From Bacteriovoracaceae bacterium (GTDB taxonomy: Bacteria; Bdellovibrionota; Bacteriovoracia; Bacteriovoracales; Bacteriovoracaceae): a DNA stretch of 44,820 nucleotides. Positions 2,313 through 28,928 of the stretch are shown one piece after another; the stretch's first letter is position 1; each line of letters opens with the position of its first letter. A program made the position numbers and the translations under genes. The stretch spans positions 1 through 44,820 of the forward strand of contig JBFGZE010000018.1 of the NCBI GenBank assembly GCA_041586955.1. The letters run 5' to 3'. The notes under the pieces were generated by a model that ran no database searches, was not told the origin of the DNA, and saw only the letters and a program-made list of their open reading frames with translations.

Positions 2313-2340
2313 ATGAGTTATAATGGCAATTATAGCTCAT
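2313..2340. other. dif-like 28-bp symmetric recombinase site (11-6-11)
   Basis: ATGAGTTATAA-TGGCAA-TTATAGCTCAT. Arms are inverted repeats with 1 mismatch and the inner ATAA-N6-TTAT matches dif geometry. Lies 93 bp upstream of a tyrosine recombinase. Confidence 0.7.
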
Positions 2341-2433
2341 AACCCTTATTCTCTCTTTTCTCACACCCCGTCTCTAAAGGTTTTTTGAAAAACTCCGTTA
2401 AGAAATTATATGTAATAATCATAAGGAAAATAG

Positions 2434-3405
2434 ATGATGAATAACCGTAATATCAACCTCGACTTGGTGGCACAAAACCCCAGCGACGAGTCGTTAAAAT
2501 TAGAATATGAATTTTTTCAAAATTTTGAATCGACCCATACCCGAACATCCTATAAAAACGATATTCGCCATTTTTTCCAATTTTTCAGCGGTCAATTTCG
2601 CGAACAATCTTTACTTAATTGTGAGCGTTTTCATGTGGTCGCCTATAAGACCTGGCTTTTAGAGGGTAATTACTCCCCTAAAAGTATCAACCGCAAACTC
2701 TCCTCTTTATCCGCTTATTTCAAATTTCTCATGGAAAAATCTTTTGTTGAAACCAACCCATGTCAAGGTATCCGAAGGCCACGCCAAGTCGTTCAAAAAG
2801 AGACCAACGACCTGACAGATGAGGAAGTGTTACAATTATTTGAGGCCATTGATAAGTCCGCCTCACCACTTCATAAGGCGATTCTCTATATTTTTTTTGG
2901 CACTGGAATTCGTAAATCGGAATTAATTAATTTGCGGAAAAAAGACCTGCGAGAAATTAATGGACATATGACCATCGAAGTTCGCGCCAAAGGAGGCAAG
3001 CAATTACTAAAATTCTTACCGGAAGAGTGCGTCCAGGCGATTGACGATTATTTAGCGTGGATGGACGGCCAAGAACGCAGTATTTGTGACGATGATTGGC
3101 TTTTCCAGCCTAGTAAGAACCCTTACCGCGGTAAAGAATTTTTAGTGAAGCCCATACGGCCAAAATCCATTGATTATATCTTCAGAAAGTACTGTCAATT
3201 GGCGGGAATTAGCAAGCATATAACCCCTCATAGCGCCCGTGCAACCTATATTGGCTCCGCCCTTGATAACGGCTCTAATATAATTAAAGTGGCAAAAGAT
3301 GTTGGCCATAGTTCGATCAAAACGACTGAGCATTATAATAAGCGGCGCAATCAATTATCCGACTCCCCTGCTCGGAATCTTGGGTTTTTTAAAAAAACGG
3401 CCTAA
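2434..3405 (+). CDS. Tyrosine recombinase (XerC/XerD-like, stand-alone)
   Basis: N-terminal SAM-like domain (SPKSINRKLSSLSAYFKFL...NPC). Catalytic motifs GIRKSEL, KGGK, HSAR and GHSSIKTTEHY. Confidence 0.93.
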   Translation: MMNNRNINLDLVAQNPSDESLKLEYEFFQNFESTHTRTSYKNDIRHFFQFFSGQFREQSLLNCERFHVVAYKTWLLEGNYSPKSINRKLSSLSAYFKFLMEKSFVETNPCQGIRRPRQVVQKETNDLTDEEVLQLFEAIDKSASPLHKAILYIFFGTGIRKSELINLRKKDLREINGHMTIEVRAKGGKQLLKFLPEECVQAIDDYLAWMDGQERSICDDDWLFQPSKNPYRGKEFLVKPIRPKSIDYIFRKYCQLAGISKHITPHSARATYIGSALDNGSNIIKVAKDVGHSSIKTTEHYNKRRNQLSDSPARNLGFFKKTA

Positions 3406-3413
3406 GTCTCAAG

Positions 3414-5039
3414 CTAGAATCCAGAGGGGTCATTAGATTGTTCGTTTTCCATCATCGGCAATAAAGAAAGGTCTAGCTCCTCGAGTACCTTCCAGTCCTT
3501 ATCATAAGACAGGCAAAGTCTTTGGAGATAACGTAAGACCCGCACAAAATAATGAAAAAACTCAAATGATGTTTTAAGATAAGAGGCATGAGTCTTATCA
3601 CCATCTGGCCCCTGCAAAGTCACTTTTTCAGTTAGAAAAGAACCTGGCCTATTGGCCTCACGATCAAATAAATAACACCAAAGCTCATTGCGGTTCCCAT
3701 CAAAGCTATCAACGACTCCTTCAAGAGGATCTAAGGCCATATCTAATTCATCGCGACTTAGGTCTTGAATAAAATGGTTAAAAGCATCCCAGTGTAACAA
3801 TAAATCCTTCAGCGTACGCAGACGGCCTAATTGGGCCCACGCTAAAGGCCTATGGGATTCATGCTTATGCCAAATAAGTAATAATAAATGTTCCAAGAGG
3901 TCAATTTCTTCGAGGAAGTCCAGGGGCACCTTGGCAATCTTTTTTCGAACGCCCTTTTGGGATAGACTTTGCACTAATTGGTCTTCAAACGTTTTTAAGC
4001 GGAATAATAAATCACGGTACAGCTTTTGGGCCTCGACTAGGCCTTCATCTGGCACATTTGATAATAATTGGAATAGGTTTTTTGAAATGGATTGTTCTTT
4101 ATCTCGGTCCGCTGCCTGGCCAGGGTAAATCGCAATCACAATTTTTTGGATTATCGGATAAACAAGAAGACCCATGATAGAGTTTAAAAAATTAAAGGCA
4201 AAGTGGATGGCATTGATTTCATGCTCAATTGCCAGGCCTAAAACTCTATTGACTAAAATTTCTATAACGTTGAGGAAGGTTCCCATGGTGACGACACACA
4301 TCAGAAGTCCAAGGCCATGAATAATAATATTCGCCATTGCCAAGCGTTTCGCCTTAGTGCTCAACCAGGTACTAACCACCAGAGCTGTTAAGGTCAATCC
4401 TAAATTGGCCCCTAAGATTATATAGGGTGCCTTTATTAAGTATCTTGATGTTAATAAATCAAGAATAGGCCCATGTGATTGTAAAAGAATACTGGAAAGA
4501 AAACCCAGTCCCATACCTTTTAAGGGATTCCATGTTTCGCCAGCAAGGAGTTGGTCCGGAGTCAAGATCGTCATCCAGCCCCCCAGGCCCTTTTGTAAAA
4601 GAGCAAAACCGAAAAAAATGATTCCAAGCCAACTCATCAATTGGAAAAAGGAGCGCCATTTAAGTGAGCGCCATAGAAAGATTCCCATTTGTCCGCCCAA
4701 GAGGCAAAAGACAGCGAGGAAGGTCATATCAGGCCCTATAATCCAAAAATTAAGACTAGCTCCCACTGATGCCCCTAAAACAAAAGCAAAGGATGAAGCA
4801 AAGCTAATGGTCGAGCGGGAGGCAAAAATCATCATGCCAATAATCGCCAGCGTTGATGATTGAATCACCATACTAAAGATCAGGCCCAGTAAATATGGCC
4901 GTAGCAAACCGTCGAAATGATCAAATAAACTCTTTGGTAAACGAGTTAAGGCCTTGTCTAGATTAGACGGGATTTTTCGCAGGCCAAAAATAAATAGGCC
5001 GATCCCTAATAAAAATTGAATGATATTTAATTCAAGCAA
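3414..5039 (-). CDS. Na+/Pi cotransporter family (NptA/YjbB-like) protein, divergent
   Basis: Multi-TM N-terminal region with IQSS, LGASVG and repeat-2 LQSHG/GANLG motifs. Helical soluble C-terminus occupies the PhoU-like position. Confidence 0.75.
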   Translation of the reverse strand: MLELNIIQFLLGIGLFIFGLRKIPSNLDKALTRLPKSLFDHFDGLLRPYLLGLIFSMVIQSSTLAIIGMMIFASRSTISFASSFAFVLGASVGASLNFWIIGPDMTFLAVFCLLGGQMGIFLWRSLKWRSFFQLMSWLGIIFFGFALLQKGLGGWMTILTPDQLLAGETWNPLKGMGLGFLSSILLQSHGPILDLLTSRYLIKAPYIILGANLGLTLTALVVSTWLSTKAKRLAMANIIIHGLGLLMCVVTMGTFLNVIEILVNRVLGLAIEHEINAIHFAFNFLNSIMGLLVYPIIQKIVIAIYPGQAADRDKEQSISKNLFQLLSNVPDEGLVEAQKLYRDLLFRLKTFEDQLVQSLSQKGVRKKIAKVPLDFLEEIDLLEHLLLLIWHKHESHRPLAWAQLGRLRTLKDLLLHWDAFNHFIQDLSRDELDMALDPLEGVVDSFDGNRNELWCYLFDREANRPGSFLTEKVTLQGPDGDKTHASYLKTSFEFFHYFVRVLRYLQRLCLSYDKDWKVLEELDLSLLPMMENEQSNDPSGF

Positions 5040-6523
5040 AAATCCTCCAGGGTATAGCGAAATGCATTGAGGTCCAAAGATGGAACGACCTTAGATAGCC
5101 CGGTTTGGTCCATTTCTAGCCGGTAAGTTTGAAATTTAATGGTTTTTATTCCTTGACGCTGCAACGACATTTTAAGAACTAAATCAAGGTTATAGGTCTT
5201 AGGCCCATCGAGCTCGACGCGACCCTCATCTTCATCCAGAAAACTCATACTCTTTTGAGGAGTATCTAAATGACGATAAAAATCCCGTAGGTCAAAGCGC
5301 ACGACATCCTTAAGCGCCCACTTCCCTACTCGATTGATCGGATATAATGCAATTTGTTTATTATAGTGAAGAACCTTATCATGGCCGAGGAGGCTTCCCT
5401 TGGCCTTTTGGCGGGCCTTTTTCCATACATAATACACTTCGTCTGAAACGTCTTCTTTGGCCAAGGTTCGTAGGGTTTCAGTTTGTAAGGCCACTTGTTT
5501 TCGCTCTTTTTGATTGCCATAAAAATCAAACCAAATTTCTGATTTAAAATCGGGTAATTTACCTTTCATCTTTTGGTTAAAATATTCTTTGGAGATATCT
5601 TTGATACGATCTTTGAAGACATACACAGCGACAGCGATCATTAGCATAATAAAAAACTTAATGCCATAATCATGGTCCCCTTGGTTAAAGCGCGATTCGT
5701 ATTGAGCAAAAAAATTAAAACTTGCGGCCAAGGCGGCGGCCACTGCGGCGGCCATATTTTTATAAAATTTATCTTTTTTAATTCGCACGACATCAACATA
5801 TAGAATTTCGGAAATAAATTTCTTGAGCATAGAGGCCCTTTGTAAAAAGCGAAGGCGATCTTGGCGCTTATGAACCACATCATAGTCTTTATAGTGACGG
5901 CGAGTATAAGAACGCTCAGATTCTAAAATGTGGCGCCAATAACTTTCCTTTTCCAAATGCGCCTTTAGGCCAAAGTATTGCCAATAATAACTTAGGTACT
6001 CATCACACCAGGCAATATGCTTGACCACTGTGGAATGCGCGCTACTATCTCCATGAAGGGGGTGCACGATCTCTTGTCTAAACTGATGAAGATATTGATA
6101 AAGAGACTCCAATAAAGCTTCACGTTCTTTAAAGGCCAGATCTTTAGTTTGCTTTAATTGCTGAATAATACGATTGGTAAATAATTTGCCCTCATAAATG
6201 ACATCTTTTAAGAGCGCCTCGCGTTTCGCTAATTGCACTCCCAGACCTAGGTATTCAAGAGTTTTTTCGAATTGATAAATGAATTCCAACTCAACAGTCG
6301 GGGTATGCAATCGTAAATGGTTTTTCACATTTTCAAAAAAGCGATCTCTTTGTTGCCAACGCCCCTGATCCTTAAGCGTATTTGGTGAGAAAAAATACAA
6401 ATCAATTTCAAAATTATTAAGGTGTAGGGTCTCATCACCTGATAAAAATGGATAATTCAGACCTAGCTCAATATGGCCATTGCCTCTTTTCAATAAAATT
6501 TGTCCAGGGCACCAATCCATCAT
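5027..6523 (-). CDS. Hypothetical protein with two central transmembrane helices
   Basis: 498-aa ORF with TMs MAAAVAAALAASFNFFA and FFIMLMIAVAVYVF followed by KDRIKD. Overlaps the next gene by 13 bp. Confidence 0.75.
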   Translation of the reverse strand: MMDWCPGQILLKRGNGHIELGLNYPFLSGDETLHLNNFEIDLYFFSPNTLKDQGRWQQRDRFFENVKNHLRLHTPTVELEFIYQFEKTLEYLGLGVQLAKREALLKDVIYEGKLFTNRIIQQLKQTKDLAFKEREALLESLYQYLHQFRQEIVHPLHGDSSAHSTVVKHIAWCDEYLSYYWQYFGLKAHLEKESYWRHILESERSYTRRHYKDYDVVHKRQDRLRFLQRASMLKKFISEILYVDVVRIKKDKFYKNMAAAVAAALAASFNFFAQYESRFNQGDHDYGIKFFIMLMIAVAVYVFKDRIKDISKEYFNQKMKGKLPDFKSEIWFDFYGNQKERKQVALQTETLRTLAKEDVSDEVYYVWKKARQKAKGSLLGHDKVLHYNKQIALYPINRVGKWALKDVVRFDLRDFYRHLDTPQKSMSFLDEDEGRVELDGPKTYNLDLVLKMSLQRQGIKTIKFQTYRLEMDQTGLSKVVPSLDLNAFRYTLEDFCLN

Positions 6524-6698
6524 TTACAGCGCTCTCCCATGAATGCAAATGATCTAGTCTACAATCCGTTAAAAAATACTGTCAAGAACGGCCAGAATAT
6601 TTTTTATGCGCGTTAAGTGACCTAAATCTTGCTGAGTTATAGGGCATTTGCTAAAATTGCGAATACTTGACCAAAAAATACTTCGTAGGAGAGGGATA

Positions 6699-8471
6699 AT
6701 GATCATCGATGATGTGACGCAAAACTGGAAATGGCTTTTTAAAAACGCTTTTGATTGGCCAACCATCTTAAAGAACTATTACCCCAATTATCCTACAGAA
6801 GATGGATTTGAAAATGAAGATGATGTTATCGAGTTCATGCAAGAAATCTTGGAGAGTATTGGTGATTGGACCAATGGCCCTCTGATGGAAATGGCGGCCC
6901 GTCTTGATAAAGAAGGCGCGGGCGAGGTTCGCGATGGGCGCACCTACTTGTCAGAACCACTCCAAAACTTCATCAAAGAATGTAAGCAATTTGAAGTATT
7001 CGGCCTACCGTTGCCTAAAGAATACGGTGGAATGGGCGCGCCCATCAGCCTTTTCTTTATTATGATGGGAGTTATGTCTCGCGCCTGTATTAGCTCAAGT
7101 ACTTTAATGAGTTTTTATACTTCCATTGCAGAAATGGTTCACCGATATTGTGACCATGAAACGGCAGCTCGAGTAATTCCACAAATTATCGCTGGTGAGC
7201 TCAGTGGTTCAATGAACTTAACAGAACCTGGATGTGGCAGCGACTTATCTAAAATCAAAACGACTGCGGTCTTACAAGAAGATGGCTCTTACCTTCTCAA
7301 TGGTAGTAAATGCTTCATCACCAATGGCGGTGGCGGTCTGGCCTTTGTTCTCGCCCGAGTTCAAGGCGACCCAATGGATCTCTCTGGAATCTCGATGTTT
7401 TTCATGGAGCAAGACATTACCGACGCTAACGGCGAAAAAATACTTAATTTCAAAGTCACCAAAAATGAAGAAAAAATGGGGATGCATGGCTCATTTACAA
7501 CGGAAGTTGTTTATGAAAATGCCAAGGCCCATTTGGTTGGCGAGCAGGGGAACGGCTTTAAGTATATGCTTCATTTAATGAATGAGGCACGTATTGGAGT
7601 TGGCCTACAAGCTGTTGGTGGCATTGAGGGCGTTTTAGGCCATGCCCGTGCTTATTCTCAAGAGAGACAGGCCTTCGGTAAACCTATCGCTGAACTCCCC
7701 TTGCTAAAGAGATTACTCACCGATTATGAAACTGAACGTGATGCCTTGGCCGCCTTATTGGCCGATACCCTCTCTCATTTTGACATCTTCCTAACTCTGG
7801 ATAATAAAAATATTCAAACCGGGGACCTAACAGAAGAGGAAGAAAAAACCAAGGCCCAAGCCTCGTTATGGACTCGTAAGCGCACACCTCTCGTCAAGTA
7901 CTACGCCTGTGAGGCCTATACAGAAATCAGCCAACGCTGTATTCAAGTACTCGGTGGTTATGGTTTTATGCAAGAATACCCCGTGGAACGTTACCACCGC
8001 GATAGTTTTGGGCCACTTCTTTATGAGGGGACTAGCCAGATACAGGCGTTAATGGCGATGAAGGACCTGTTTAAATTCATGATGAAGGATCCTAAGCAAT
8101 TCTTTAAAGGTGTGCTTGTCGGTCATCCGACCAATCGGCTTTTTTCCGATATGGGAACTTATGAGAATAAATTTAGAGCTGCCCAGTACCGCTTTAAAAA
8201 GAAACTACTTAAATTGATCCTTGGGACCTTAAACATAAAGAGTCCCGCAGCTTTGACCAATCCTAAGAAGTTATTAAATGAAGAGGCCATTGATCAATTA
8301 ATGATCCACGCGGAAACCTTATGCCAGGGTCTTTGCTATTTGGAAACCTTGCGGGTTCTTGCGAGTCACGCTGATAAAGATTCAACTCGCGCCGGCCTCT
8401 TTGACCGTTATATGGTTTTAGTTGGCCCACGCTTTGAAGGAATTTATCAAGATTGGAAATTACGGCGCTAA
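6699..8471 (+). CDS. Acyl-CoA dehydrogenase
   Basis: LTEPGCGSD, NGSKCFITNG, EKMGMHGS, QVLGGYG and YEGTSQIQ motifs. ATG 6699 follows an AGGAGAGG Shine-Dalgarno. Confidence 0.95.
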   Translation: MIIDDVTQNWKWLFKNAFDWPTILKNYYPNYPTEDGFENEDDVIEFMQEILESIGDWTNGPLMEMAARLDKEGAGEVRDGRTYLSEPLQNFIKECKQFEVFGLPLPKEYGGMGAPISLFFIMMGVMSRACISSSTLMSFYTSIAEMVHRYCDHETAARVIPQIIAGELSGSMNLTEPGCGSDLSKIKTTAVLQEDGSYLLNGSKCFITNGGGGLAFVLARVQGDPMDLSGISMFFMEQDITDANGEKILNFKVTKNEEKMGMHGSFTTEVVYENAKAHLVGEQGNGFKYMLHLMNEARIGVGLQAVGGIEGVLGHARAYSQERQAFGKPIAELPLLKRLLTDYETERDALAALLADTLSHFDIFLTLDNKNIQTGDLTEEEEKTKAQASLWTRKRTPLVKYYACEAYTEISQRCIQVLGGYGFMQEYPVERYHRDSFGPLLYEGTSQIQALMAMKDLFKFMMKDPKQFFKGVLVGHPTNRLFSDMGTYENKFRAAQYRFKKKLLKLILGTLNIKSPAALTNPKKLLNEEAIDQLMIHAETLCQGLCYLETLRVLASHADKDSTRAGLFDRYMVLVGPRFEGIYQDWKLRR

Positions 8472-8671
8472 AATAGATCGAGGATTGATTGCAAATAAGG
8501 GCCTTGTGCTGTCATTTGTGACCAATTCTCGGGTTTTGAAATCGTCTCCAAATCCTGGTGCCAGTCTAATGCTTCCTGAGCTTTCATTGTTGCCAGGACT
8601 CTTTCTGCTTGGATCCCATCCTGTTGGTTAACGGCCTGATCTGAAGAGTTCTGATTGATATTTTGATCCAT
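8468..8671 (-). CDS. Small acidic hypothetical protein
   Basis: 67-aa ORF with an AAGGA Shine-Dalgarno. Its stop overlaps the convergent ACAD stop. Confidence 0.5.
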   Translation of the reverse strand: MDQNINQNSSDQAVNQQDGIQAERVLATMKAQEALDWHQDLETISKPENWSQMTAQGPYLQSILDLF

Positions 8672-8725
8672 AAAAATCCTTGTCTGGTGCTTATTTGCTG
8701 GCCCGCTTCAGGGCGTGGTATTTTG

Positions 8726-9124
8726 CTAGTTCTTAAGATCTAATACATCGTTTATTATTGTATAAACTGGAAGATGAGGCCTGGTTACTTCATTTGAAAA
8801 GAAATTAATATTGATAATATTATCTCCATCATTATCCAAATATGCCTTCATCATGCGATTTGAAAAATTTAAAACTGTTCCCTTTTTTAAATTTAATATT
8901 TGTATTTCCTTATCTACCGTAATGGCCATATACCCACACTTTCCAGTATGAACAAATTTTAGAAAGTAGCGTTTGTCGAAATCTTGTACTGTCCTAACTG
9001 GATATGAACGTAACTCTAGTGTTCCTTGGCATCGCTCAACTTTTACCGCCCTCCCTACAAGGTCACTGTGACCAAAGGCGGATACTGAAAGTAATAATGC
9101 TGCCCACAGAAAAAGTCTATTCAT
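8726..9124 (-). CDS. Secreted hypothetical protein
   Basis: Signal peptide MNRLFLWAALLLSVSAFG, GGAG Shine-Dalgarno, one Cys pair, AT-rich coding sequence. Confidence 0.7.
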   Translation of the reverse strand: MNRLFLWAALLLSVSAFGHSDLVGRAVKVERCQGTLELRSYPVRTVQDFDKRYFLKFVHTGKCGYMAITVDKEIQILNLKKGTVLNFSNRMMKAYLDNDGDNIININFFSNEVTRPHLPVYTIINDVLDLKN

Positions 9125-9414
9125 GTCAATTCTCCGTTCTTTTCATTAGTGGTTTGACTCCAAATTAGATTTAAGAGTCGCATAAAAATGAGAATATTAA
9201 TGCGATGCATGTAAAATATTTACCCCTTGGTCAGTTTGAATAAATCTTTTAATTACAGGTAATTATCACTTTAATATCTTGAGAAAGGGCAGAAACAAGC
9301 TATTTTGATGAATGGTAAGACCTCTCCATTTAAAACCTGCCTGAATAATTTGGTAGTGGGACTTTTTTGAGCAGTCCCTAACCTCTTGAAACCCTTTAAA
9401 GCCGAGTGTTTTGA

Positions 9415-9441
9415 TAAAGAAATAGCATAAATGACCGATAA
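9415..9441 (+). promoter_or_regulatory. Sigma-28 (FliA)-type promoter
   Basis: TAAA-N15-ACCGATAA, against consensus TAAA-N15-GCCGATAA. Confidence 0.7.
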
Positions 9442-9473
9442 TAGAAGGGTAAGTTTTGTCCCCAGGAATGGTA

Positions 9474-11189: not shown

Positions 11190-11297
11190 AGCGTGAAGAA
11201 GTTGATCAGACTGTGTTTTACCTTCTCAGGTTCACACCGCCAATTTAGGCGGAGAGTCCTGAAAATGGTCAAAGTCATTATTTTCTATCGCCCCTTT
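11188..11297 (-). ncRNA. Candidate structured small RNA (long imperfect hairpin)
   Basis: Nested complementary blocks CCGCC/GGCGG, TCAGG/CCTGA, ACC/GGT, GACT/AGTC and GCG/CGC. Upstream minus-strand TTGGGT-N17-TAAAAT. Confidence 0.3.
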
Positions 11298-11408
11298 TTA
11301 TTTATTTTAAACGTCCCTCGTTCTTAACCCAAAATTGGTTATTTATGGCAGAACAAACGGTCTAAAAGTAGCTTATAAAGTGGCCAAAAGGGGTCTAGTG
11401 TATTGTTA

Positions 11409-12095: not shown

Positions 12096-12104
12096 GCTAT
12101 TAGC

Positions 12105-12131
12105 TTATCGGAGTCATTCTGCGGAGTTTTA
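12105..12131 (-). promoter_or_regulatory. Sigma-28-type promoter
   Basis: Minus strand TAAA-N15-TCCGATAA, ending 9 nt before the lipoprotein ATG. Confidence 0.65.
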
Positions 12132-12142
12132 GGGATTAATTA

Positions 12143-12955: not shown

Positions 12956-13027
12956 TTTTTTTTCTAAAACTGGCCTTCTATGATGTAAAATAATATCTGG
13001 TGAGACTTTTATATTAGGAAGGAGGGC

Positions 13028-14377: not shown

Positions 14378-14386
14378 GGCAAATTA

Positions 14387-15322
14387 ATGACGAATTATTT
14401 AACTCAGTTGCTTGGTATTAAATACCCCATTATTCAAGGGGGGATGGTTTGGGTCTCGGGCGCCAAATTGGCGGCAGCAGCATCTAATGCAGGAGCTTTA
14501 GGCCTGATTGGAGCAGGCTCTATGAAACCAGACCTTTTACGGCAGCATATTCTTAAATGCCAAACCTTAACTGATAAACCCTTTGGGGTGAATGTCCCTT
14601 TGCTCTATAAAGATACAGAAAAACAAATTCAAACTGCGCTCGATTTGGGGGTGCGAATTTTTTTTACATCGGCAGGAAGCCCTAAAAAGATGACCAACTT
14701 TTTAAAAAAGGAAGGTGCGACCGTCGTTCATGTGACAAGTTCTCCCTTATTGGCCAAAAAATGTGAAGACGCCGGAGTCGATGCCGTTGTCGCTGAGGGC
14801 TTTGAGGCTGGAGGTCATAATGGGCGTGATGAAATCACAACGATGAATCTTATTCCACAAGTCGTGGATGCAGTGAATATTCCCGTCATCGCGGCCGGTG
14901 GAATTGGGACTGGACGGCAAATGCTTGCGGCCATTAGTCTCGGTGCTGATGCCGTGCAAGTTGGAACTCGCTTTGCGGCCACTATAGAATCTTCTGCCCA
15001 TGATAATTTCAAACAGGCAATCGTCAATGCCGGCTTTGGTGATACTAAATTGATGATGAAAAGTTTAGTTCCGGTACGCCTTCTCAAAAATCATTTTTAT
15101 GAAGAAGTCGAAGAAATGGAATCGCGATGTGCCAGCGTTGAGGAATTACGAGAACTTCTCGGAAAGGGTCGTGCCAAGGCGGGGATGCTTGAGGGTGATC
15201 TTGAACGGGGAGAATTAGAAATTGGCCAGGTGTCGGCCATGATTCACGATCTCCCCACAACGGCAGAAGTTGTGGGGAGATTTATCAAAGAGTATCAAGA
15301 GGCCAAGGACCGCTTATTATAA
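14387..15322 (+). CDS. Nitronate monooxygenase / FabK-like flavin oxidoreductase
   Basis: YPIIQGGM, PFGVN, EGFEAGGHNG, PVIAAGGI and VQVGTRF motifs. Confidence 0.92.
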   Translation: MTNYLTQLLGIKYPIIQGGMVWVSGAKLAAAASNAGALGLIGAGSMKPDLLRQHILKCQTLTDKPFGVNVPLLYKDTEKQIQTALDLGVRIFFTSAGSPKKMTNFLKKEGATVVHVTSSPLLAKKCEDAGVDAVVAEGFEAGGHNGRDEITTMNLIPQVVDAVNIPVIAAGGIGTGRQMLAAISLGADAVQVGTRFAATIESSAHDNFKQAIVNAGFGDTKLMMKSLVPVRLLKNHFYEEVEEMESRCASVEELRELLGKGRAKAGMLEGDLERGELEIGQVSAMIHDLPTTAEVVGRFIKEYQEAKDRLL

Positions 15323-16207: not shown

Positions 16208-16240
16208 GAAATCCTCCGTTAATCTAAGGGTATGGCCATA

Positions 16241-16268: not shown

Positions 16269-16310
16269 GCACATGGGCGCTCTTACAACTATTTTAAGGT
16301 CAATTTATTG

Positions 16311-16337
16311 TAAAATTTTACAATTTTTGACCGATAC
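16311..16337 (+). promoter_or_regulatory. Sigma-28-type promoter
   Basis: TAAA-N15-ACCGATAC upstream of the channel gene. Confidence 0.6.
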
Positions 16338-16384
16338 GTAAATAAATAAAATTAAAGAGTTATCGCAAAAGGAATGAGCGCAAT

Positions 16385-17686: not shown

Positions 17687-17769
17687 CTCCTCTCGTGTTT
17701 CATAGTGCATTGTTCATTTCCTCCCTATAAAAAGACAGTTAGAGTTAAAGGCCATACTTTGGAGGTCAA

Positions 17770-20483: not shown

Positions 20484-20493
20484 ATTGACAATC

Positions 20494-20527
20494 AAAAAAA
20501 AGGGCCTCAAATATAAAATGAGGCCCT
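20494..20527 (-). terminator. Intrinsic terminator between convergent genes
   Basis: AGGGCCTCA/TGAGGCCCT stem preceded by an A7 run, which is a U-tract on the minus strand. Confidence 0.75.
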
Positions 20528-20553
20528 CAGTAAATGATCACTTGAATTAATTA

Positions 20554-20961
20554 TTATTTTTGGCAGTTAAGGACACAGGCCTTCATTTCTGCGCTTGGAC
20601 GTACTCCAAATGCATGACAGGCCTCTATGCATTGCTTAACCAATTCTGTTTTATTGACATAGGTATAATCAACAACGTCACATAAAGCATCAACTTCGAC
20701 TCTTACTTGGTAAGTCGCGTTTTTTGTTTGTATCTGCGCCACATAGGCCTCATAACCAGCAGAAGTTAATTCATCAAGAAGCTGAAGTTGAGACGCCTGG
20801 TAACCACTCCAAGTTGAACTGGCCTCGTCATAAGGAACTTTTAACTCCTGAGACAAAATATCTAAAACCTGAAGGCCAATCGCTTCTCGGCATTCGCTTG
20901 CAAAAATGTTGGTATTTAAAACAAAAAGAACGGCGATGATCGCCTTGAATATATTTTTCAT
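20554..20961 (-). CDS. Secreted Cys-rich hypothetical protein
   Basis: AGGAG Shine-Dalgarno, signal MKNIFKAIIAVLFVLNTNIFA, C-terminal CxxxC...CxxxC. Confidence 0.75.
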   Translation of the reverse strand: MKNIFKAIIAVLFVLNTNIFASECREAIGLQVLDILSQELKVPYDEASSTWSGYQASQLQLLDELTSAGYEAYVAQIQTKNATYQVRVEVDALCDVVDYTYVNKTELVKQCIEACHAFGVRPSAEMKACVLNCQK

Positions 20962-21052
20962 TTGATCTCCTAAGTTCAAATGCTTTTACTCAAGAGGTCA
21001 AGGCCTTGTCAATGTGACGGGATAGGTTTTTTAGAGTTTTCGAAAATATTTC

Positions 21053-21079
21053 ATTAAGGCCCTTAATAAGGGCCTTAAT
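21053..21079. terminator. Hairpin downstream of the KamA-family gene
   Basis: Perfect 12-bp inverted repeat ATTAAGGCCCTT-AAT-AAGGGCCTTAAT. Confidence 0.55.
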
Positions 21080-21105
21080 TGAAAGTACGAAACAAGGAGA
21101 AAGGT

Positions 21106-22425
21106 CTAGCGAGCTTGATCCATGGCGGCTTGAATCATCTCTTCACGAGTCTTCTTATCATGCCAACGCTTTTGCGCCTCAGGAGATAGTTTATGAATAG
21201 GATCAAAATAAGTGAATAATTGACCTTTTTTCACTTCCGGAGCACGCCATACGCTAATGCCATTTTCCTCATCATAATATTCGTAGCTTGCGACATGGCG
21301 TTTACCACCACCACCAGGAAGGTCACAGACAAAAGTAGGTGTGTTAAAACCTGCTGTTGTACCACGAACCGCTTTTTCAAGCTCCACTCCTTCACGCAAA
21401 GTGGTGCGGAAGTGCTCACAGCCAGGAACCATATCATGCATATATACATAATAAGGTTGAATATTAAGGTAGCCCACCTGACGGGTTAATTGCACCATGG
21501 TGTCAATATTATCATTAACACCGGCCTGTAATACCGCCTGGTTACGAACAATAATCCCCGCCGCAAAAATACGGTCCATCGCCAATTTTGTCCATTCGGT
21601 GATTTCTTGAGGAGAACTAAAGTGAGTATGAATCACGACCTGTTTACCAAGGGATTTTCCAAATTGGTGAACAGAGGTAAGGGCCTCAAACCAGGCCTCA
21701 TCAGTCAGTATTTTTTGGGGAAAAATCGCAATCCCTTTGGTGGCATAGCGAATCCGTCGAATATGAGGAATCTTAAGGAGGCTTTCACCAATATAGCGGA
21801 TTTGCGCCGCGGTTAGCATAAAAGAGTCACCACCAGAGATCACGACATCTTCGACCGCCTCTTGAGTGCGTAAATAGGCAAAAACATCATCCCAATTTTT
21901 TTGATTGGCGCCGTAGGTTTCTTTTTCAACAGTTTCAGTAGAGCCACCAATTAAGCGGCTACGAGTACAATAGGAACAATAAACGGGACAAATACTTGTT
22001 GGGAGAAATAAAACTTTATCAGGATAGCGATGAGTTAACATCGGTACAGGCGAATCGGTGTCTTCGCTTAAGCTGTCGGCCATATGCATTGGGTGATCTT
22101 CTAAGAATTGTGAACCCAAAGGCAGAAATTGTTTTCTCAAAGGATCATCTGTGGGGTTATCCCAATTAATTAAAGCAAAAATATAAGGCGTTATGCGAAT
22201 ATTCATAGGCGTGATTTTTTGACCTTCACGCAAATCTTCCATAAAATCTTCTGAAACTCGAGGCCCTAAAACCTTGGCAACTTGGTCAATTTTACGAATT
22301 GAGTTTTTCGTTTGCCATCGATGATCAGCAAACTCCTCGCGACTGACATCGGCCCAGCCAGGGATTTGCTTCCAAAAATCATCACTTCGAAATTGACGAT
22401 GTTTAAAATCTTTATCACCACTCAT
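21106..22425 (-). CDS. KamA-family radical SAM/PLP aminomutase (lysine 2,3-aminomutase-like)
   Basis: HRYPDKVL, CPVYCSYCTR, ISGGD, NQAVLQAGVND, PYY...D and DLPGGGGK (PLP lysine). Confidence 0.92.
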   Translation of the reverse strand: MSGDKDFKHRQFRSDDFWKQIPGWADVSREEFADHRWQTKNSIRKIDQVAKVLGPRVSEDFMEDLREGQKITPMNIRITPYIFALINWDNPTDDPLRKQFLPLGSQFLEDHPMHMADSLSEDTDSPVPMLTHRYPDKVLFLPTSICPVYCSYCTRSRLIGGSTETVEKETYGANQKNWDDVFAYLRTQEAVEDVVISGGDSFMLTAAQIRYIGESLLKIPHIRRIRYATKGIAIFPQKILTDEAWFEALTSVHQFGKSLGKQVVIHTHFSSPQEITEWTKLAMDRIFAAGIIVRNQAVLQAGVNDNIDTMVQLTRQVGYLNIQPYYVYMHDMVPGCEHFRTTLREGVELEKAVRGTTAGFNTPTFVCDLPGGGGKRHVASYEYYDEENGISVWRAPEVKKGQLFTYFDPIHKLSPEAQKRWHDKKTREEMIQAAMDQAR

Positions 22426-22641
22426 AATGCCTACCTCTAAAGAAATTTATCTTATTGGCCCTTTAATTACACTGAATTTCATAGTCCTTCAAGGTCACTA
22501 CCACAAACCGGCTAAAATCCATCAGGTTTAACCGAATCACATCTTCATTGTAGTACTTTTGCCAAAACCAAGCGATAAGATTTAACAAAGGAAAAATTAA
22601 TGCTATAACTTCACCAACTATTTAAATGCGTCGGGAATAAT

Positions 22642-23712
22642 ATGAAAGAATGGATTCTTTACTTACTCATAGCGTTGCTGTTTTCACCTCTCGCTGCCTT
22701 GGGCGTAGAGCATCATATCGATACAACTTGGGGGGGACTCTCCCTGAGCGATGCACAAAATAAATCCCGCTTGATGCAGGCCACTTTTCTTTACCAGGCC
22801 GAATATTCACCAAGCACTCCCCTCACCTTTTATTCTGGCCTGCTCTTTAATGCTCAAACTGGCTCAAATAATGCAGAATTTATTGATGAATATATCCCGA
22901 AACAAACTTGGGCCATTCATCAGGCCGTAATGACTTATAGGCCTACTTCATTTCTTTCTTTTTCCTTGGGAGCACTTAACCAAGGCCAATGGCAGGCGCC
23001 GCTTCTGTTGGGCAATCAGGCATTTGCTGGAGCTCAAGAAGAATTGCATATTAAAAATGATTATATGGATTTAAATCTTTTCTTGCAGCAAAGTATTCCC
23101 ACTAATCAAACACTTTTATCACGCCTGGATTCGTCTGAAGATGGCACACCTTCATTATTATTGGGTGGGCTTCGTCTCACCAATAAGTCCCTTCTCATTC
23201 AGGGAATGTTTTTTAGCTTCAATGAACTTGGAAGTTCTGTTGCTCATTATTCTCGCTTTATGGGGAATTCGATCCTCGGCACGACAACTTCAAACTCACG
23301 CTTTCTCTATGGCCACCAAGGTTTCCATGCACTGGTGAAAACTCAATTTCCCATAGGGCAATTTATGGATCTTAAAACAGGTTGGGCCTTTCTTCACAAC
23401 AATAAAACGCCAGATAAGCGTAGTGATGGTTATCGTATCTTTGTTGATTTCGACTTTAAAGGTTTTGGTTTAGGAACAGAATATTTCCTCAACGAATCGG
23501 ACTCCGCTCCAAGCTTTTATAATTTAGGGACCTATGGCCATAATAATGTCCAGGGCCTGATCGCCCGCCTTTTTGGTACGATCAATCAAATGGATTATGA
23601 ATTTATTATCGTACGATCCCAAGTAATTGACCAAAATGTGGCCCAGGCACTTTACCAATCCGAGCGCACCAGCTTTCAATTCAACATTAGTCGACGATTT
23701 GTTTTACCCTAA
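22642..23712 (+). CDS. Putative outer-membrane beta-barrel protein
   Basis: Signal peptide, alternating aromatic/amphipathic strands, C-terminal FQFNISRRF. Confidence 0.65.
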   Translation: MKEWILYLLIALLFSPLAALGVEHHIDTTWGGLSLSDAQNKSRLMQATFLYQAEYSPSTPLTFYSGLLFNAQTGSNNAEFIDEYIPKQTWAIHQAVMTYRPTSFLSFSLGALNQGQWQAPLLLGNQAFAGAQEELHIKNDYMDLNLFLQQSIPTNQTLLSRLDSSEDGTPSLLLGGLRLTNKSLLIQGMFFSFNELGSSVAHYSRFMGNSILGTTTSNSRFLYGHQGFHALVKTQFPIGQFMDLKTGWAFLHNNKTPDKRSDGYRIFVDFDFKGFGLGTEYFLNESDSAPSFYNLGTYGHNNVQGLIARLFGTINQMDYEFIIVRSQVIDQNVAQALYQSERTSFQFNISRRFVLP

Positions 23713-24822
23713 AAATTTTTTAAGCCCGTAATAGAGGTGAAAGGGAATGAGTTTTTTGGAGGTATAAATGCCATGACCAAAAATACTAAAAGGCCCTAAT
23801 GGTAGGATGGTGTCATCTCCATAATCAACTAAATAATGGTGTCCCCATTGCTGAAAGCGATTCCCTTGATCCAAATGCTGCCACCAAGTTTTGCCATCAA
23901 TGCCTTTGCCAAGTAAAGAGTCCAAGTCCCGATTAAAATGCCTCTCATTTTGTGAGGCCGAGATAAAATCTGAACCTGGTGAACCCCATAATTGAATATA
24001 ATCGCCAAACTTCGTTTGCATAACACCCTTGGTCCCTACGCCTTGGGTTGTTTCTTTACGATGATTTGAAAAATGAACAAAGCTCCAAGCTCCCTCTAGG
24101 CCCATTTCATAGCGAGGTGGTGCGCCTAATGTATTGACCCAAAAGGGTCCCTTAAGAGAAGAGAGTTTAAAACTATTGGCGGTATTATGCTTCTTAAATA
24201 GCTTGGCAATTTCAGCATAAAGGTTTGCGTTGCTTTGTAATGAGGATAGTAAAATGGGTAATTGAGAACCATGACTATGGCAGAGGAAAAGCACTGGACC
24301 TTGATTTAGACCCTCTTTTATTAAGAATTTATTGAGTTCCATCGCCCCCTTGAGGCGAGCAAGATGATGGTTTGAACTAGTCCATACAAATCGCTTAATT
24401 GGAATACCTGGGCATAGACCTTCCAATTCGTTTATATAATGCTTCGTAAAATTGGCCTTTTCCTGTAAGATTAAGTCAGTTTGACCTTTGGTCATTCTCC
24501 GCATGAGATTAAGGTTGATAGGTCGGTGCCGAGAAAGAATTGATTCTGCTGCGCGAATAAGAGTTAATGGGTCATCACCAATGAAGGTGCCGTGAATAAG
24601 TACAATGCCCTTTAATTGAGCTCGATTTAATAAGCTTTGCAATTCATGAGTTGGAATATTTTCCAAACAGGTGTCCTGTAAATATTCAAAAGGTGGATCG
24701 CCGTCTCTTTCTAAAGGTGTATAGGGTCTGGGAAAACTGCGTTTTTTCCGTAAATAGAAAAAGATTACCAGCAGAAAAATAGAAATGAGAACTGGAGCGA
24801 TTATAGGCAAAAAATCTATCAT
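23704..24822 (-). CDS. Membrane-anchored alpha/beta-hydrolase-like protein
   Basis: N-terminal TM, LIHGT oxyanion-like motif, CHSHGSQ nucleophile elbow, TLGAP and a late HGIY. Confidence 0.65.
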   Translation of the reverse strand: MIDFLPIIAPVLISIFLLVIFFYLRKKRSFPRPYTPLERDGDPPFEYLQDTCLENIPTHELQSLLNRAQLKGIVLIHGTFIGDDPLTLIRAAESILSRHRPINLNLMRRMTKGQTDLILQEKANFTKHYINELEGLCPGIPIKRFVWTSSNHHLARLKGAMELNKFLIKEGLNQGPVLFLCHSHGSQLPILLSSLQSNANLYAEIAKLFKKHNTANSFKLSSLKGPFWVNTLGAPPRYEMGLEGAWSFVHFSNHRKETTQGVGTKGVMQTKFGDYIQLWGSPGSDFISASQNERHFNRDLDSLLGKGIDGKTWWQHLDQGNRFQQWGHHYLVDYGDDTILPLGPFSIFGHGIYTSKKLIPFHLYYGLKKFLG

Positions 24823-25329
24823 GCCTTTATTTTAATAAAGACTCTAAGTGAAAGTCACGCATATAAAACAAGGGATCATATATTTTATAACTGGACCATA
24901 TAAATGGTGCTAGGCCATCGATAAATTATTTTCAAATCTAACGTTTTATAATCCGGTGGTGCCGGCCTTTCCTCATAAATAGATTTTTTTTAAGGACTTT
25001 AAAAAGGTATAAATAAAAACAATAATAAATATTTCTTTCGGATTAAGTTTTCTTAATTTTTTAAAATACGACTTCGTGATTCAATCAAATTCATTGTTTT
25101 TCTAGCTATCAAAAGACTCAATCATCAGCAGTCATGGACAATTCAGAGACTTCAAAGTTTTTTCTATAAAAAACATGATTTTTAAAGCTTTCCATCAATA
25201 ATTAATAGTTAATTTTTATTTGTGAAATTTTCTCCGTATTTTTTTTATGAGGATTTATTTACAATTAAAACTATCAAGTGCAGGCCTTACTTCAATGAAT
25301 GTAAGTAAACCTTTTAAGGGAGGGTTTTA

Positions 25330-26973
25330 ATGAGTATTCAAAAATCTATTTTGTACGTGGGTGAGGATGAGTCTCTCTTCAGCAAGATAGAAATATTCTG
25401 CGAAGCGAGAATTAGGACCGACTTTATAATCCAACAAACAAATTATAAACCTGGTTCACTTATTGAGCATATCACTTCAGATTTACCTAATATTATTTAT
25501 ATCGACTTCACCGAGATCGAAAAATACACCGATATTTTGGTTCAAGAGATTATTTTCTTAAAACAATATAACCGCTTCCGTAGTATTATGTTCGCGGCAA
25601 TACTACCCAATGAAAAAAATAAAGAACAATTCCCACAATTATTTACATCTGGCTTCCAATAATCAATGATTAAAGGAATGGAATTGGATAATTTCCTGCT
25701 GACCAGTTTTTATATTGGCTTTGGAGTAAAAGTTCGATTTCCACAATACGCCCAGGTGAAGTATATCGATCGAAAACTAGTCGTTGGTATATGCTCGACT
25801 TTAACAGCTCTTTCCCTGGACCAATTTATAATTGAGACAGATTTAGAGACAGATAAAGTCAAACTCCAACTATCTCTACCGCTCTTTGAAGAGCTTAAGG
25901 CAACATCATTTGATATTTCGAAAAGACATCGTTCAAATTTCATTTATCCTATGACCGATACCTATTATTTAAATTACCCTTTTCGGGGTGCCTGGGATGA
26001 GGAAACAGATGAGACACTAGATAAGGAGGTACTTAAATCCTGGTTCCAATCAAATCATCAGGAGCTTGAGCAGAATAAGATTTTTACTCAGGTCATTACC
26101 AAAAATAGAGCATTGATAAATGATCTATTTCAGTTTTCACTTAGACCTGATTATCATATCGAAATAAGTGAGTTCCTAGACGTTAGCTTCTTAAAACAGG
26201 CCTTACCGTTAAAAACTCCACAAATTATCTTTGTCGATATTTCCGAGACAAAGGGCAACTCTTCTAAAGACGACCATGACCTTAAAAATCTTATTGGACT
26301 CATTGCCATTATTAATAATATTTCCAATTATAATCCTATTTTGGTTATTTCAAATAATAAATCAAAGTCAGAAGCATTACGTAAGGCCTATAATTACCCA
26401 AACATTATTGTCACGCCCGAAAAGCTTAACGTAGAGACCTTTGAATTGTTAGCAACCAGTTATTCCGAAAGTTACTCATCAGATGATAGCTCCCCTGAGC
26501 TTCACTACTTCAAGATCATGGATGAAAGGCGAGCAGTTATGGTTGATCAGCAAATTCTTGTCACCAGCTTATCTGAACATAAAGTAACATTTATAAGCGA
26601 AGCTGAATTGCCCATATATAGCGTCCTTCATTTTCTTCTGCCCTTTGATTTTTATGTGACAATTGTGCCCGATTTAGAGCAATTGGTTCAAAAGGAAAAT
26701 GTGACTCATTATACGGGAGTTATCCATGGGCTAACTGAGTCGAGTATCCAAAATTTAAGAAGATTTATTAATCTCATATACTTTAACCCCTTGGAAGAGT
26801 TCACTCCCGAACATATCCAAGCAATACTTGGCCAAAAGGAAATCAAAGAAGAGATTATAGTAGATATAGATACGGATAAAGAAAGTATCACCGATGAGAT
26901 GATTGAAGAAGAAGAGGATAATTGGAACCGGACCTTCAAACGGCCAACACTGAAAGGAAAATCTAAATTATAA
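25330..26973 (+). pseudogene. REC-like signalling protein split by an in-frame TAA at 25660-25662
   Basis: ORFs 25330-25662 and 25666-26973 share a frame (…GGC TTC CAA TAA TCA ATG…). The stop falls inside the first REC-like domain (ILYVGED…PNIIYIDF) and the second ATG has no Shine-Dalgarno. Confidence 0.65.
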
Positions 26974-27132
26974 AGGCAAATAAAGACAAAAGCCGACTAA
27001 AGCAGTCAACAGGATTCACTTCAGACACTTATAAGAGCTCATTCTAGAGACTAGAAAAAAATGATAAAAGTTTCCAAAAAAATATTATCACAAAACACAC
27101 CACAAGAAGTGGATGTAATTGAAGATTGGCGG

Positions 27133-27141
27133 TGCTATAAT
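27133..27141 (+). promoter_or_regulatory. Extended -10 promoter element
   Basis: TGcTATAAT about 45 nt upstream of the response regulator start. Confidence 0.4.
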
Positions 27142-27186
27142 TTAAAGGTCTAGCATGAATAGTAAAACCAAATGATGGGGTGCTCT

Positions 27187-27633
27187 ATGAAGAACGGAAA
27201 TTTATTATTAGTTGATGATGAGCCTCTCATCCTAGAAAGGTTAAAGCTAACCTTAGAAGAAGTTGCCGATACTATCCATACCGCACTAAACGGAGTCGAG
27301 GCACTCAAAATAATTAATAAAGAGAATATTCACTGTATTGTCTGTGATATCAATATGCCTAAAATGAATGGCGTTGAGGTCATTAAGAGGGTTCGCGCTG
27401 ATAATAATGATGTCCCCTTTATCTTTTATACTGGCCATGGCACCCAGGACTTGATGCTGGAGGCCATTAAATATGGTGCCTTTGACTTTCTTGATAAGCC
27501 TAATCTTGATGGCCTTGAAGAAGTTATTATTAATGCTCTTCGGGAAGGCGCAAAGAATCATTCAAAGGTTGCGACCGACAAAAACTGTTTTGTTTCAGAA
27601 TATCAAAAGTTACTAACCACTCTTAAAAAATAA
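27187..27633 (+). CDS. Single-domain response regulator (REC)
   Basis: LLVDDE, CDINMPKMNG, YTGHG and FLDKP motifs. Confidence 0.93.
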   Translation: MKNGNLLLVDDEPLILERLKLTLEEVADTIHTALNGVEALKIINKENIHCIVCDINMPKMNGVEVIKRVRADNNDVPFIFYTGHGTQDLMLEAIKYGAFDFLDKPNLDGLEEVIINALREGAKNHSKVATDKNCFVSEYQKLLTTLKK

Positions 27634-27693
27634 CGAATTCTTTATTATCAATAGCTACTAGACGCAGCATAAATTAATCCACTTGTCCCAATA

Positions 27694-27722
27694 CCCGACG
27701 GCATTACTGTGCTGCTGTCGGG
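27694..27722 (+). terminator. Hairpin after the response regulator
   Basis: CCCGACGGCA/TGCTGTCGGG stem (one G-U pair) followed by CCTTATTT. Confidence 0.45.
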
Positions 27723-27831
27723 CCTTATTTCAAAAAAAAGTACTCATAAACAAGGTCTCATTATCCGATCTGTATTTTACCCTAGGGTAACCCACCCCCA
27801 AATCAAAATACGGCGTTTTACGTAAATTCAA

Positions 27832-27860
27832 TTGCTTACCTGCTATATTTTGCGTATAAT
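27832..27860 (+). promoter_or_regulatory. Sigma-70 promoter of the second recombinase
   Basis: TTGCTT-N17-TATAAT. Confidence 0.65.
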
Positions 27861-27876
27861 ATAAATTATATGCAAA
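27849..27876. other. dif-like 28-bp symmetric recombinase site (11-6-11)
   Basis: TTTGCGTATAA-TATAAA-TTATATGCAAA. Arms are inverted repeats with 1 mismatch, and the left arm is 8/11 identical to the E. coli dif XerC arm GGTGCGCATAA. Confidence 0.7.
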
Positions 27877-27935
27877 GTAGGCACTCTAAAATCGATTCTA
27901 AGCGTTTTGGGGTACCAAGGACCAAGGGTAATCAC

Positions 27936-28928
27936 ATGCTAAAAATGAATGAGAAATGGCTTGAGGAATTTATGGATAATTGTCGCACCCTCAATAAGTC
28001 ACCTCATACACTCAAGAATTATTACGCCGATTTGAAAAAGTTTATTAATTGGTACGAGGCCAATTATGGGCGAAAAGTTTCCCAGGCCAACGGTCAAACC
28101 ATTACCTTATATAAAGATTTTCTAAGTGGTGGCGGAGGGTATACGCCCTATCAAAAAAAACGGCATAAGATTCGCCTCTTTTTAAAGCATATCTTCAAGA
28201 AAGATAAACCAGCGCCATTAGCTCAAGTACTCCAGGCGCCATTGGCCGTCGCATCTCGTCGGCGACATCTGAGTGCTATCCGAAATTTTTTCGAATATCT
28301 TAAACAGGTTCATGAAGACCGTTCCAAGATCTTTGCTATCAACCCTGTTAAACCAAAGATTCATGGCATTAAATTGAAAGATATCGACATTACTCCTACT
28401 AAAATGCTGCGACCTGGTGATTGGTACAAACTAGACCAGGGCCTATTTCGCGCGAAAGAACGACTAATTGTTTATCTTCTTTACTGGGGAGGTTTACGAC
28501 TGGAAGAATTAACGACGCTTAAAGTTGAGTATTTTCATAGGGAGTCCGGGAGTCTAAAATTCCCGCGCAAAGGCGGAAGCATCCATACACTGATGATTCA
28601 AAACTCTGCTGAGGTTTTTAAATATTTAGATTATTGGCTAAACCAAAGGCCTATTGATTCAGAACATCTTTTTGCCCGCCGTTTTGGCCGGCCGGAGTCG
28701 ACTCGTAATATGTATAACCTTATTAAGCGAATTTTAAAAAAATGTGATTGTGATATGGAACTAACCCCTCATAGTTTTCGTAAGGCCTGCGCCACAGAGC
28801 TCTATTTAAAAAAACGAGATTTATTATTAGTTCGTGATTACCTCAACCATAGTGATGCAAAAGTCACCCAAACCTATATTGATAAAAGAACTCTTCAGGA
28901 AAACTCGGTCGCTCAATTACAGGAGTAA
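27936..28928 (+). CDS. Tyrosine recombinase (XerC/XerD-like, stand-alone)
   Basis: SPHTLKNYYADLKKF, SRRRHLSAIRNFF, GLRLEEL, RKGG, HSFR and NHSDAKVTQTY. AAGGG precedes ATG 27936. Confidence 0.93.
   Translation: MLKMNEKWLEEFMDNCRTLNKSPHTLKNYYADLKKFINWYEANYGRKVSQANGQTITLYKDFLSGGGGYTPYQKKRHKIRLFLKHIFKKDKPAPLAQVLQAPLAVASRRRHLSAIRNFFEYLKQVHEDRSKIFAINPVKPKIHGIKLKDIDITPTKMLRPGDWYKLDQGLFRAKERLIVYLLYWGGLRLEELTTLKVEYFHRESGSLKFPRKGGSIHTLMIQNSAEVFKYLDYWLNQRPIDSEHLFARRFGRPESTRNMYNLIKRILKKCDCDMELTPHSFRKACATELYLKKRDLLLVRDYLNHSDAKVTQTYIDKRTLQENSVAQLQE

Follow-up and report, generated by a model that had tools for sequence, protein, structure and literature searches.

A candidate chromosomal dif that appears to be used by a single recombinase was found in the 44,820-nucleotide stretch of Bacteriovoracaceae DNA analyzed here (contig JBFGZE010000018.1, called the window in the following; G+C content 40.4%), which probably covers the replication-terminus region of a member of the Bacteriovoracia (Bdellovibrionota). 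The window carries two tyrosine recombinase genes, rec1 and rec2, and upstream of each of them lies a palindrome, named site 1 and site 2, respectively. Judged from the DNA, the symmetry of site 1, together with a step in GC skew and a reversal of a polar heptamer at its position, are the marks of a dif used by one recombinase, and we consider it quite likely that site 1 is the dif of this clade. The account as a whole, in which site 1 and rec1 form the dif system of the terminus and site 2 and rec2 a second, paralogous unit, is reasonably probable, and what it says about site 2 with rec2 is tentative.

Two Recombinase Genes and Their Sites

The four elements of the two units are as follows.

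2313-2340, no strand assigned: site 1, 11-6-11 palindrome ATGAGTTATAA TGGCAA TTATAGCTCAT, candidate chromosomal dif
2434-3405, plus strand: rec1, 323-amino-acid Xer-like tyrosine recombinase, presumed enzyme for site 1
27849-27876, no strand assigned: site 2, 11-6-11 palindrome TTTGCGTATAA TATAAA TTATATGCAAA, presumed binding or recombination site of rec2
27936-28928, plus strand: rec2, 330-amino-acid Xer-like tyrosine recombinase, with other in-frame starts at 27870 and 27972

Both sites have the format of Xer/dif sites, namely inverted arms of about 11 bp around a 6-bp centre, and each has a single arm mismatch, in both cases at arm position 6; site 1 can alternatively be paired as a 13-4-13 palindrome spanning 2312-2341. 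A preliminary description of this DNA had placed 28-bp 11-6-11 palindromes less than 100 bp upstream of both recombinase genes, each dyad-symmetric with outer arm bases of its own, and this was borne out, the gap to the start codon being 93 bp from site 1 to rec1 and 59 bp from site 2 to rec2. Palindromes of the 11-6-11 form with no more than one mismatch occur four times in the 44.8 kb (at 2313, 9907, 26103, and 27849). The core TATAA-N6-TTATA was found three times in the window, against 0.08 expected, and none of 100 shuffles gave three copies; the third copy, at 29358, lies within a kinase gene. The left arms of both sites contain the hexamer TATAAT. The DNA between the sites was confirmed as housekeeping in character, as had been proposed, since an M48 peptidase, two PmbA/TldD proteins, and a Methyltransf_30 protein are encoded there.

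With the profiles of both families, rec1 and rec2 were the only tyrosine recombinase genes detected in the window. The start of rec2 was set at 27936 because this position fits the N-termini of its homologues (MKKxHxxW). Both proteins comprise a Phage_integrase catalytic domain and a SAM-like N-domain (Pfam), and they are only 20% identical to each other. No NCBIfam cut-off for an Xer protein was reached by either: rec1 and rec2 scored 143 and 97 bits with the XerC model (TIGR02224, cut-off 335), 132 and 82 bits with XerD (TIGR02225, cut-off 330), 140 and 98 bits with XerA (NF040815, cut-off 220), and 76 and 63 bits with XerS (NF003462, cut-off 267), less than half of the cut-off in the case of XerC and XerD. 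By sequence, the solved structures nearest to rec1 are archaeal XerA and XerD, and the top PDB match of rec2 is XerH (5jjv, 57 bits), a chain with which rec1 scored 27 bits. AlphaFold models of the two proteins (predicted local distance difference test values of 84.5 for rec1 and 85.7 for rec2) gave XerA (5hxy, 4a8e) as the best structural matches of rec1, and XerA followed by XerH as those of rec2.

It is clear from the alignments that R159, H265, R268, H291, and Y300 of rec1 are invariant among 43 sequences, as are lysines 185, 188, and 192, and that R176, K200, H267, R270, H293, and Y302 of rec2 are invariant among 41. We take these to be the catalytic residues, and on this assignment both proteins possess the full catalytic set of tyrosine recombinases. 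Hundreds of homologues were obtained for each protein at about 50-67% identity, and those with named sources come from Bacteriovoracaceae, Halobacteriovoraceae, Bacteriovorax, or Oligoflexia.

Site 1 Is Conserved Upstream of rec1

Relatives of rec1 were collected by a profile scan of species-representative genomes, which gave 66 loci with about 10 kb on each side of the gene. One of these, on a Kribbella contig (L066), was dropped for a match of only 33 residues, leaving 65 loci, all from Bdellovibrionota. A strict site rule (TAA-N6-TTA, and symmetry at 7 or more of the 8 outer arm bases) was then applied to 961 kb; it matched once in each of 35 loci and nowhere else. Thirty-four of the matches were upstream of rec1; the remaining one, in L021, belongs to a rec2 gene. 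Two more loci, L047 and L054, were added by a weight matrix derived from the strict-rule sites, and a palindrome of the site 1 type was thereby found in 36 of the 65 rec1 loci, including 21 of the 32 in which the upstream DNA extends over 9 kb or more. It was always upstream of rec1 and never downstream, the amounts of DNA searched on the two sides being similar (277 kb against 274 kb). Each locus has a single copy, and rec1 always lies on one side of it, reading away from the site.

The distance between site 1 and rec1 varied from 29 to 8300 bp among the relatives, with a median of 1052 bp. The position claimed earlier, directly upstream of the gene, therefore held as to the side in 36 of 36 loci and as to immediate adjacency in few, the site being within 150 bp of rec1 in only 7 loci, which are the nearest relatives of the window, and 0.15-8.3 kb away in the other 29. 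In all 10 loci inspected the site was intergenic, with zero to four unrelated open reading frames (ORFs) between it and rec1.

The commonest form of site 1 is CT-CTACCCGATAA-N6-TTATCGGGTAG-AG, and other arm forms include ATAAGGGATAA, ATGTGGTATAA, ATGAGGTATAA, CTTCCCTATAA, and CTACGGTATAA. The inner ATAA and position 2 were the same in all of the 19 different arm pairs. Positions 4 and 5 showed three and two different bases, respectively, yet were symmetric in 19 of 19 pairs, and positions 1, 3, 6, and 7 were symmetric in 15-17 of them. Such symmetry, kept through many changes, is as expected of a site that two molecules of a single protein read. TGGAAG is the most frequent 6-bp centre and occurs in either direction relative to rec1. 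In a quick tree of rec1 (63 rows, three short or broken genes having been dropped) the arm types clustered with the tree, and the CTACCCG arm type was also seen in the deep branches L057 and L058.

An apparent tandem duplication of the site in L063 (8157-8339) was rejected as a scaffolding overlap, because the two copies stand on either side of 100 N and an identical 55-bp stretch occurs at both ends of this run; the assembly of that genome had broken at site 1. In two loci an extra, different tyrosine recombinase ORF lies just downstream of rec1 (L001, 1011-1877; L062, 10899-11657), and rec1 of L062 is seemingly split.

GC Skew and a Polar Heptamer Switch at Site 1

GC skew was determined in 500-bp windows and analyzed by regression on side and coding direction. 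A step at site 1 was obtained, from +0.021 on the left to -0.021 on the right (locus bootstrap 0.014-0.028), and the best breakpoint among 29 trial offsets from -7 to +7 kb was offset 0. The corrected skew was higher on the left than on the right in 25 of the 28 loci that extend 3 kb or more to either side of the site. The different arm types gave the same step, 0.022 in 17 loci with the CTACCCG arm and 0.021 in 20 sites with other arms, and its sign, G over C on the left, is the polarity of a terminus. In the relatives, site 1 thus sits at the switch of GC skew; in the window itself the left flank of site 1 is 2.3 kb long, and the raw skew of the window alone is not decisive.

All 6- to 8-mers were ranked without bias for pointing to site 1 from both sides, and AGGGGAG came out at the top as the most polar word. 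When the rec1 gene and 60 bp round the site were excluded, it occurred 33 times on the plus strand and 3 times on the minus strand to the left of site 1, and 5 and 46 times, respectively, to the right; counted per locus, 32 loci pointed towards the site, none away, and 2 were tied. Within 8 kb of site 1, 63 copies point towards it and 3 away, and the signal weakens on moving the anchor 2, 4, or 6 kb away. When the loci were pooled, the reversal of the heptamer and the skew step were both centred on site 1 to within 500 bp. The direction of genes (-0.10 on the left, +0.39 on the right) has the opposite sense to the polarity of AGGGGAG, so neither gene direction nor ribosome-binding sites explain this polarity. 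The earlier proposal that the sites lie near the terminus is supported by these results, the skew step and the motif reversal in the relatives placing the region at a replichore junction.

The copies of AGGGGAG in the window are the following.

2673, 3363, 7695, 12509, 22817, and 26490 (span 2673-26496), minus strand: six copies, pointing to site 1
33125-33131, plus strand: the only plus-strand copy in the window

The first two copies (2673-2679 and 3363-3369) belong to rec1, whose coding sequence bears the heptamer in antisense, with 19 copies in 37 sequences. One antisense copy in rec1 overlies the near-invariant Asp-Ser-Pro codons near the C-terminus. In most loci without site 1, all copies were on the minus strand (7 of 7 in L009, 5 of 5 in L021, 6 of 6 in L037), as if the site were located further to the left. 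In L035 (1766-9809), the copies of the shorter word GGGGAG change from the minus strand (up to 3705) to the plus strand (from 4001), which is a diverging arrangement and the opposite of that at a dif.

A switch in the direction of polar motifs at dif is described as a structural hallmark of FtsK-guided systems (PMC13342612), and such a switch is present at site 1. On the strength of its distribution, we regard AGGGGAG as a candidate FtsK-orienting polar sequence (KOPS)-like, or Chi-like, motif of Bacteriovoracia. In the mechanism that we propose, rec1 would bind the two identical arms of site 1 as a homodimer, two sister copies of the site would pair in a tetramer, and strand exchange across the 6-bp centre would convert a chromosome dimer to monomers; delivery and activation would probably be the task of FtsK, reading AGGGGAG towards site 1.

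Several observations weigh against this account. The loci come from related species, and their counts are not independent. Site 1 was not found in 29 of the 65 loci, and in 11 of these the upstream DNA extends over 9 kb or more. The step in skew is small, the individual loci are noisy, and 3 of the 28 show the opposite difference; in L011 the skew is positive after site 2, and in L015 the sole change of skew sign falls at site 2. The 2.3 kb to the left of site 1 in the window hold no AGGGGAG, so that the reversal is visible only in the relatives, and with 7 copies in the window, against 4.8 expected, the heptamer shows no over-representation. Its polarity beyond about 10 kb appears weaker, with few loci reaching that far, and its orientation is mixed in L014 and opposite in L035, for which inversions or misassembly may be the cause. 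Reversal near the terminus would likewise be seen with a Chi-like motif, and AGGGGAG may therefore be Chi-like and not FtsK-guiding. The evidence on site 2 comes from five genomes.

A Second Site Accompanies rec2

Four rec2 genes happened to lie inside the rec1 loci (L011, L015, L021, and L058), and an 11-6-11 palindrome was present 25-60 bp before the start codon in all four, as in the window. The sites of these genes read as follows.

L015: GGTTCGTATAA TATAAA TTATATGAACT
L058: TCTTCTTATAA TTTCTA TTATATGAAAT, three mismatches
L021 and L011: ATTCTTATAA T ATTA A TTATAAGAAT

Conservation of the palindromes upstream of orthologous genes was accordingly found in 36 of 65 loci for site 1 and in 4 of 4 for site 2. 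Among 120 listed rec2 homologues, three gene calls start too early and translate the site as SYNINY (TATAA-TATTAA-TTATA); a search with the N-terminal 46 residues of P0058 for further gene calls that read through site 2 returned only the query. A recombinase gene with its site beside it is possibly a hallmark of the single-recombinase systems XerS and XerH (PMC5357621, PMC2731167), and rec2 showed this arrangement in the window and in 4 of 4 loci. The rec2 protein presumably binds its own symmetric site and, given the constant placement of site 2 at 25-60 bp from the start codon, probably controls its own expression there; the site may perhaps also serve recombination.

The distance from rec2 to site 1 was 5.3 kb in L011, 11.6 kb in L058, and 25.5 kb in the window, always on the rec1 side. 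No reversal of AGGGGAG was observed at site 2 in L021, where all five copies on both sides are on the minus strand, or in L011. The skew of single loci at site 2 was mixed, with a sign change in L015 and none in the expected sense in L011 and L021. The suggestion that the window holds two single-enzyme dimer-resolution modules thus fits site 1 with rec1, and for site 2 it meets with the lack of a reversal in the two readable loci.

In the window, G+C falls to 0.34-0.39 around rec2 (24000-31000), a stretch in which a response regulator and a PAS histidine kinase are encoded as well, and several ORFs in 22642-26973 have no family match.

Plasmid Relatives of rec1

Outside the clade, the nearest relatives of rec1 are on plasmids, at 30-35% identity. 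An 11-6-11 palindrome of the ATAA-N6-TTAT type was found 11-102 bp upstream of the gene in 4 of 7 such relatives inspected, which are these.

L067: NC_016108.1
L068: NZ_AP024516.1
L070: NZ_CP014361.1
L073: NZ_CP005971.1

The neighbours of the plasmid units are RelE/ParE, CopG, or StbB genes, of toxin-antitoxin or partition type, and the units are presumably plasmid multimer resolvers. They differ from rec1 with site 1 in that the terminus context is absent on plasmids and the palindrome is missing in three of the seven. For rec2, the plasmid collection contained no relative above 26% identity.

Alternative Explanations

In a bolder form of our account, Bacteriovoracia would have given up XerCD/dif and kept two orthogonal units of plasmid type in the terminus region, each with one recombinase and one symmetric site, with rec2 and site 2 as a true second recombination system. 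The dif proper would then lie at the convergence of AGGGGAG as a new FtsK-guiding motif, and rec2 with site 2 would act as an FtsK-independent or back-up resolver of chromosome multimers. Related predators grow as multi-genome filaments before dividing, and a back-up resolver may be needed if the present ones do so too. We regard this form as rather unlikely.

It is improbable, in our estimation, that the palindromes are operators or binding sites only, serving self-repression or the organization of the terminus without strand exchange. A model for the latter role exists in Bacillus, where XerD-binding sites unload SMC. The constant position of site 2 before rec2 and the TATAAT hexamer in the left arm of both window sites agree with operators, and no second copy of either site was seen that could serve as a recombination partner within one chromosome. 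However, a single copy is what a dif should have, the 11-6-11 form with a 6-bp centre is that of an Xer recombinase substrate, and the catalytic residues are all kept across 41-43 homologues. A consensus promoter scan detected no promoter overlapping either palindrome, which speaks against operators and must also be counted among the points against our own account.

The preliminary description had offered another possibility, that rec1 and rec2 are a diverged XerC/XerD-like pair acting at a hybrid site elsewhere, the palindromes being operators for self-regulation. In favour of this, the inner TATAA is common to the arms of the two sites while their outer six bases are distinct, as in the XerC and XerD arms of dif, the arm of site 2 resembles XerC-side arms such as ATTTCGTATAA in Nitrosomonas (PMC2731167), and both genes are conserved at 5-25 kb from each other. 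Against it, the skew step and the motif reversal coincide with site 1, which is itself homo-symmetric, and the usual distance of site 1 from rec1, 0.15-8.3 kb with genes between, is a misfit for an operator. The arms within each site are alike and not of two kinds, as those of a XerC/XerD dif would be. Moreover, the search for the predicted hybrid gave nothing with fewer than four mismatches in the window, L058, and L011, where both arm types are known; the best matches, with four to five mismatches, were sites 1 and 2 themselves. No half-site with the arm of site 1 was paired with a foreign arm in 630 kb, and dif-like sites with an XerD-type arm amounted to three weak regular-expression matches in 1.0 Mb of loci, none of them conserved. 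On the stretches searched, we judge the pair to be quite improbable.

It is very unlikely that the roles are swapped or shared, with rec2 and site 2 as the working resolver and rec1 and site 1 in some other function at the terminus. The tight spacing of rec2 and its site is like that of xerS and xerH (66 bp in Arcobacter butzleri; PMC2731167), the best sequence match of rec2 among solved structures is XerH, and in L015 the skew reverses its sign at site 2. For difH, published positions are 16-35 kb away from the skew peak (PMC2731167), so a position 5-25 kb from the junction does not disqualify site 2. On the other hand, the heptamer does not reverse at site 2 in L021 or L011, and the pooled reversal and skew step are both centred within 500 bp of site 1.

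That rec1 and rec2 are integrases of mobile islands, with the palindromes as attachment sites, is barely credible: both genes match the broad phage integrase family phrog_1 and rec1 has its nearest out-of-clade relatives on plasmids, but no segment is bordered by a tRNA or by a repeat of either site (in the window, scans for tRNAs and for Rfam families were negative), both families are conserved across Bacteriovoracia at about 50% identity, the side and direction of rec1 are fixed relative to the junction, and the DNA between the sites encodes ordinary metabolism.

Other Features of the Window

The gene just left of site 1 (421-1767) encodes a di-haem MauG-like peroxidase, which scored 264 bits with the 'His-Xaa-Ser system-associated' model (cut-off 340). 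A perfect 27-bp palindrome, ATTAAGGCCCTTAATAAGGGCCTTAAT, is located at 21053-21079 between the minus-strand ORFs 20554-20979 and 21106-22425, and an inverted repeat, TCTCCCCACAA ... TTGTGGGGAGA, at 15249-15281, where an NMO-family gene meets the gene of the M48 peptidase; both resemble terminators. At 37330-40977 lies the gene for a 1215-amino-acid protein that combines RCC1-like repeats with an Ig-like (He_PIG) domain.

Comparison With Known Xer Systems

If the proposed account is true, a whole bacterial class would join the single-recombinase lineages XerS, XerH, XerA, and XerL, with CTACCCGATAA-N6-TTATCGGGTAG as its dif consensus and a candidate polar guide motif. The adjacent paralogous units of recombinase and site could show how enzyme specificity diverges, and whether plasmid multimer-resolution units are the source from which chromosomal dif systems are recruited. 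Moreover, the sites and their enzymes are candidates for new orthogonal recombination tools. Full-text literature searches, with most subscription journals outside their coverage, found no report on Xer/dif in Bacteriovorax or Halobacteriovorax, and a full-text search on xerC in Bdellovibrionota gave an unrelated subject only. Bdellovibrio bacteriovorus HD100, of a sister class, has a predicted dif of the canonical type (PMC2731167, PMC3025954).

With the canonical XerC/XerD dif and KOPS, site 1 shares the 28-bp 11-6-11 form, the inner ATAA and TTAT, the switch in skew, and the converging polar motifs (PMC13342612, PMC2731167). It differs in that the canonical site has two different arms for two enzymes, whereas here the arms are identical.

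Archaeal dif is likewise an 11-6-11 site with nearly identical arms, served by the single recombinase XerA (PMC2958812), which is the best structural match of both models and among the top NCBIfam matches of both proteins. The present case differs in its bacterial host and in the reversal of a G-rich polar motif, and the sites of Thermococcales are not beside xerA. XerL of Legionellales is also a single diverged Xer, missed by homology searches, with a palindromic dif that lies immediately beside xerL on a Coxiella plasmid (PMC9765430). By its description there, it belongs to another protein family than rec1 and rec2, the catalytic tyrosine being at 387-389 in XerL and at 300-302 here.

The parallels in layout include XerS/difSL of streptococci and lactococci and XerH/difH of Campylobacterota, in which one recombinase has its site by or near the gene, and this site is an AT-rich intergenic inverted repeat at the terminus (PMC5357621, PMC2731167). 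In sequence they differ from the sites described here, difSL having an 11-bp centre and unequal arms and difH the arms TTGAAAA and TTTTCAA. The architecture had been thought possibly undescribed; its basic unit, a recombinase gene with an adjacent site, is already described for XerS and XerH and occurs on plasmids too, and the present case differs from those two systems also in having two such units in one terminus region.

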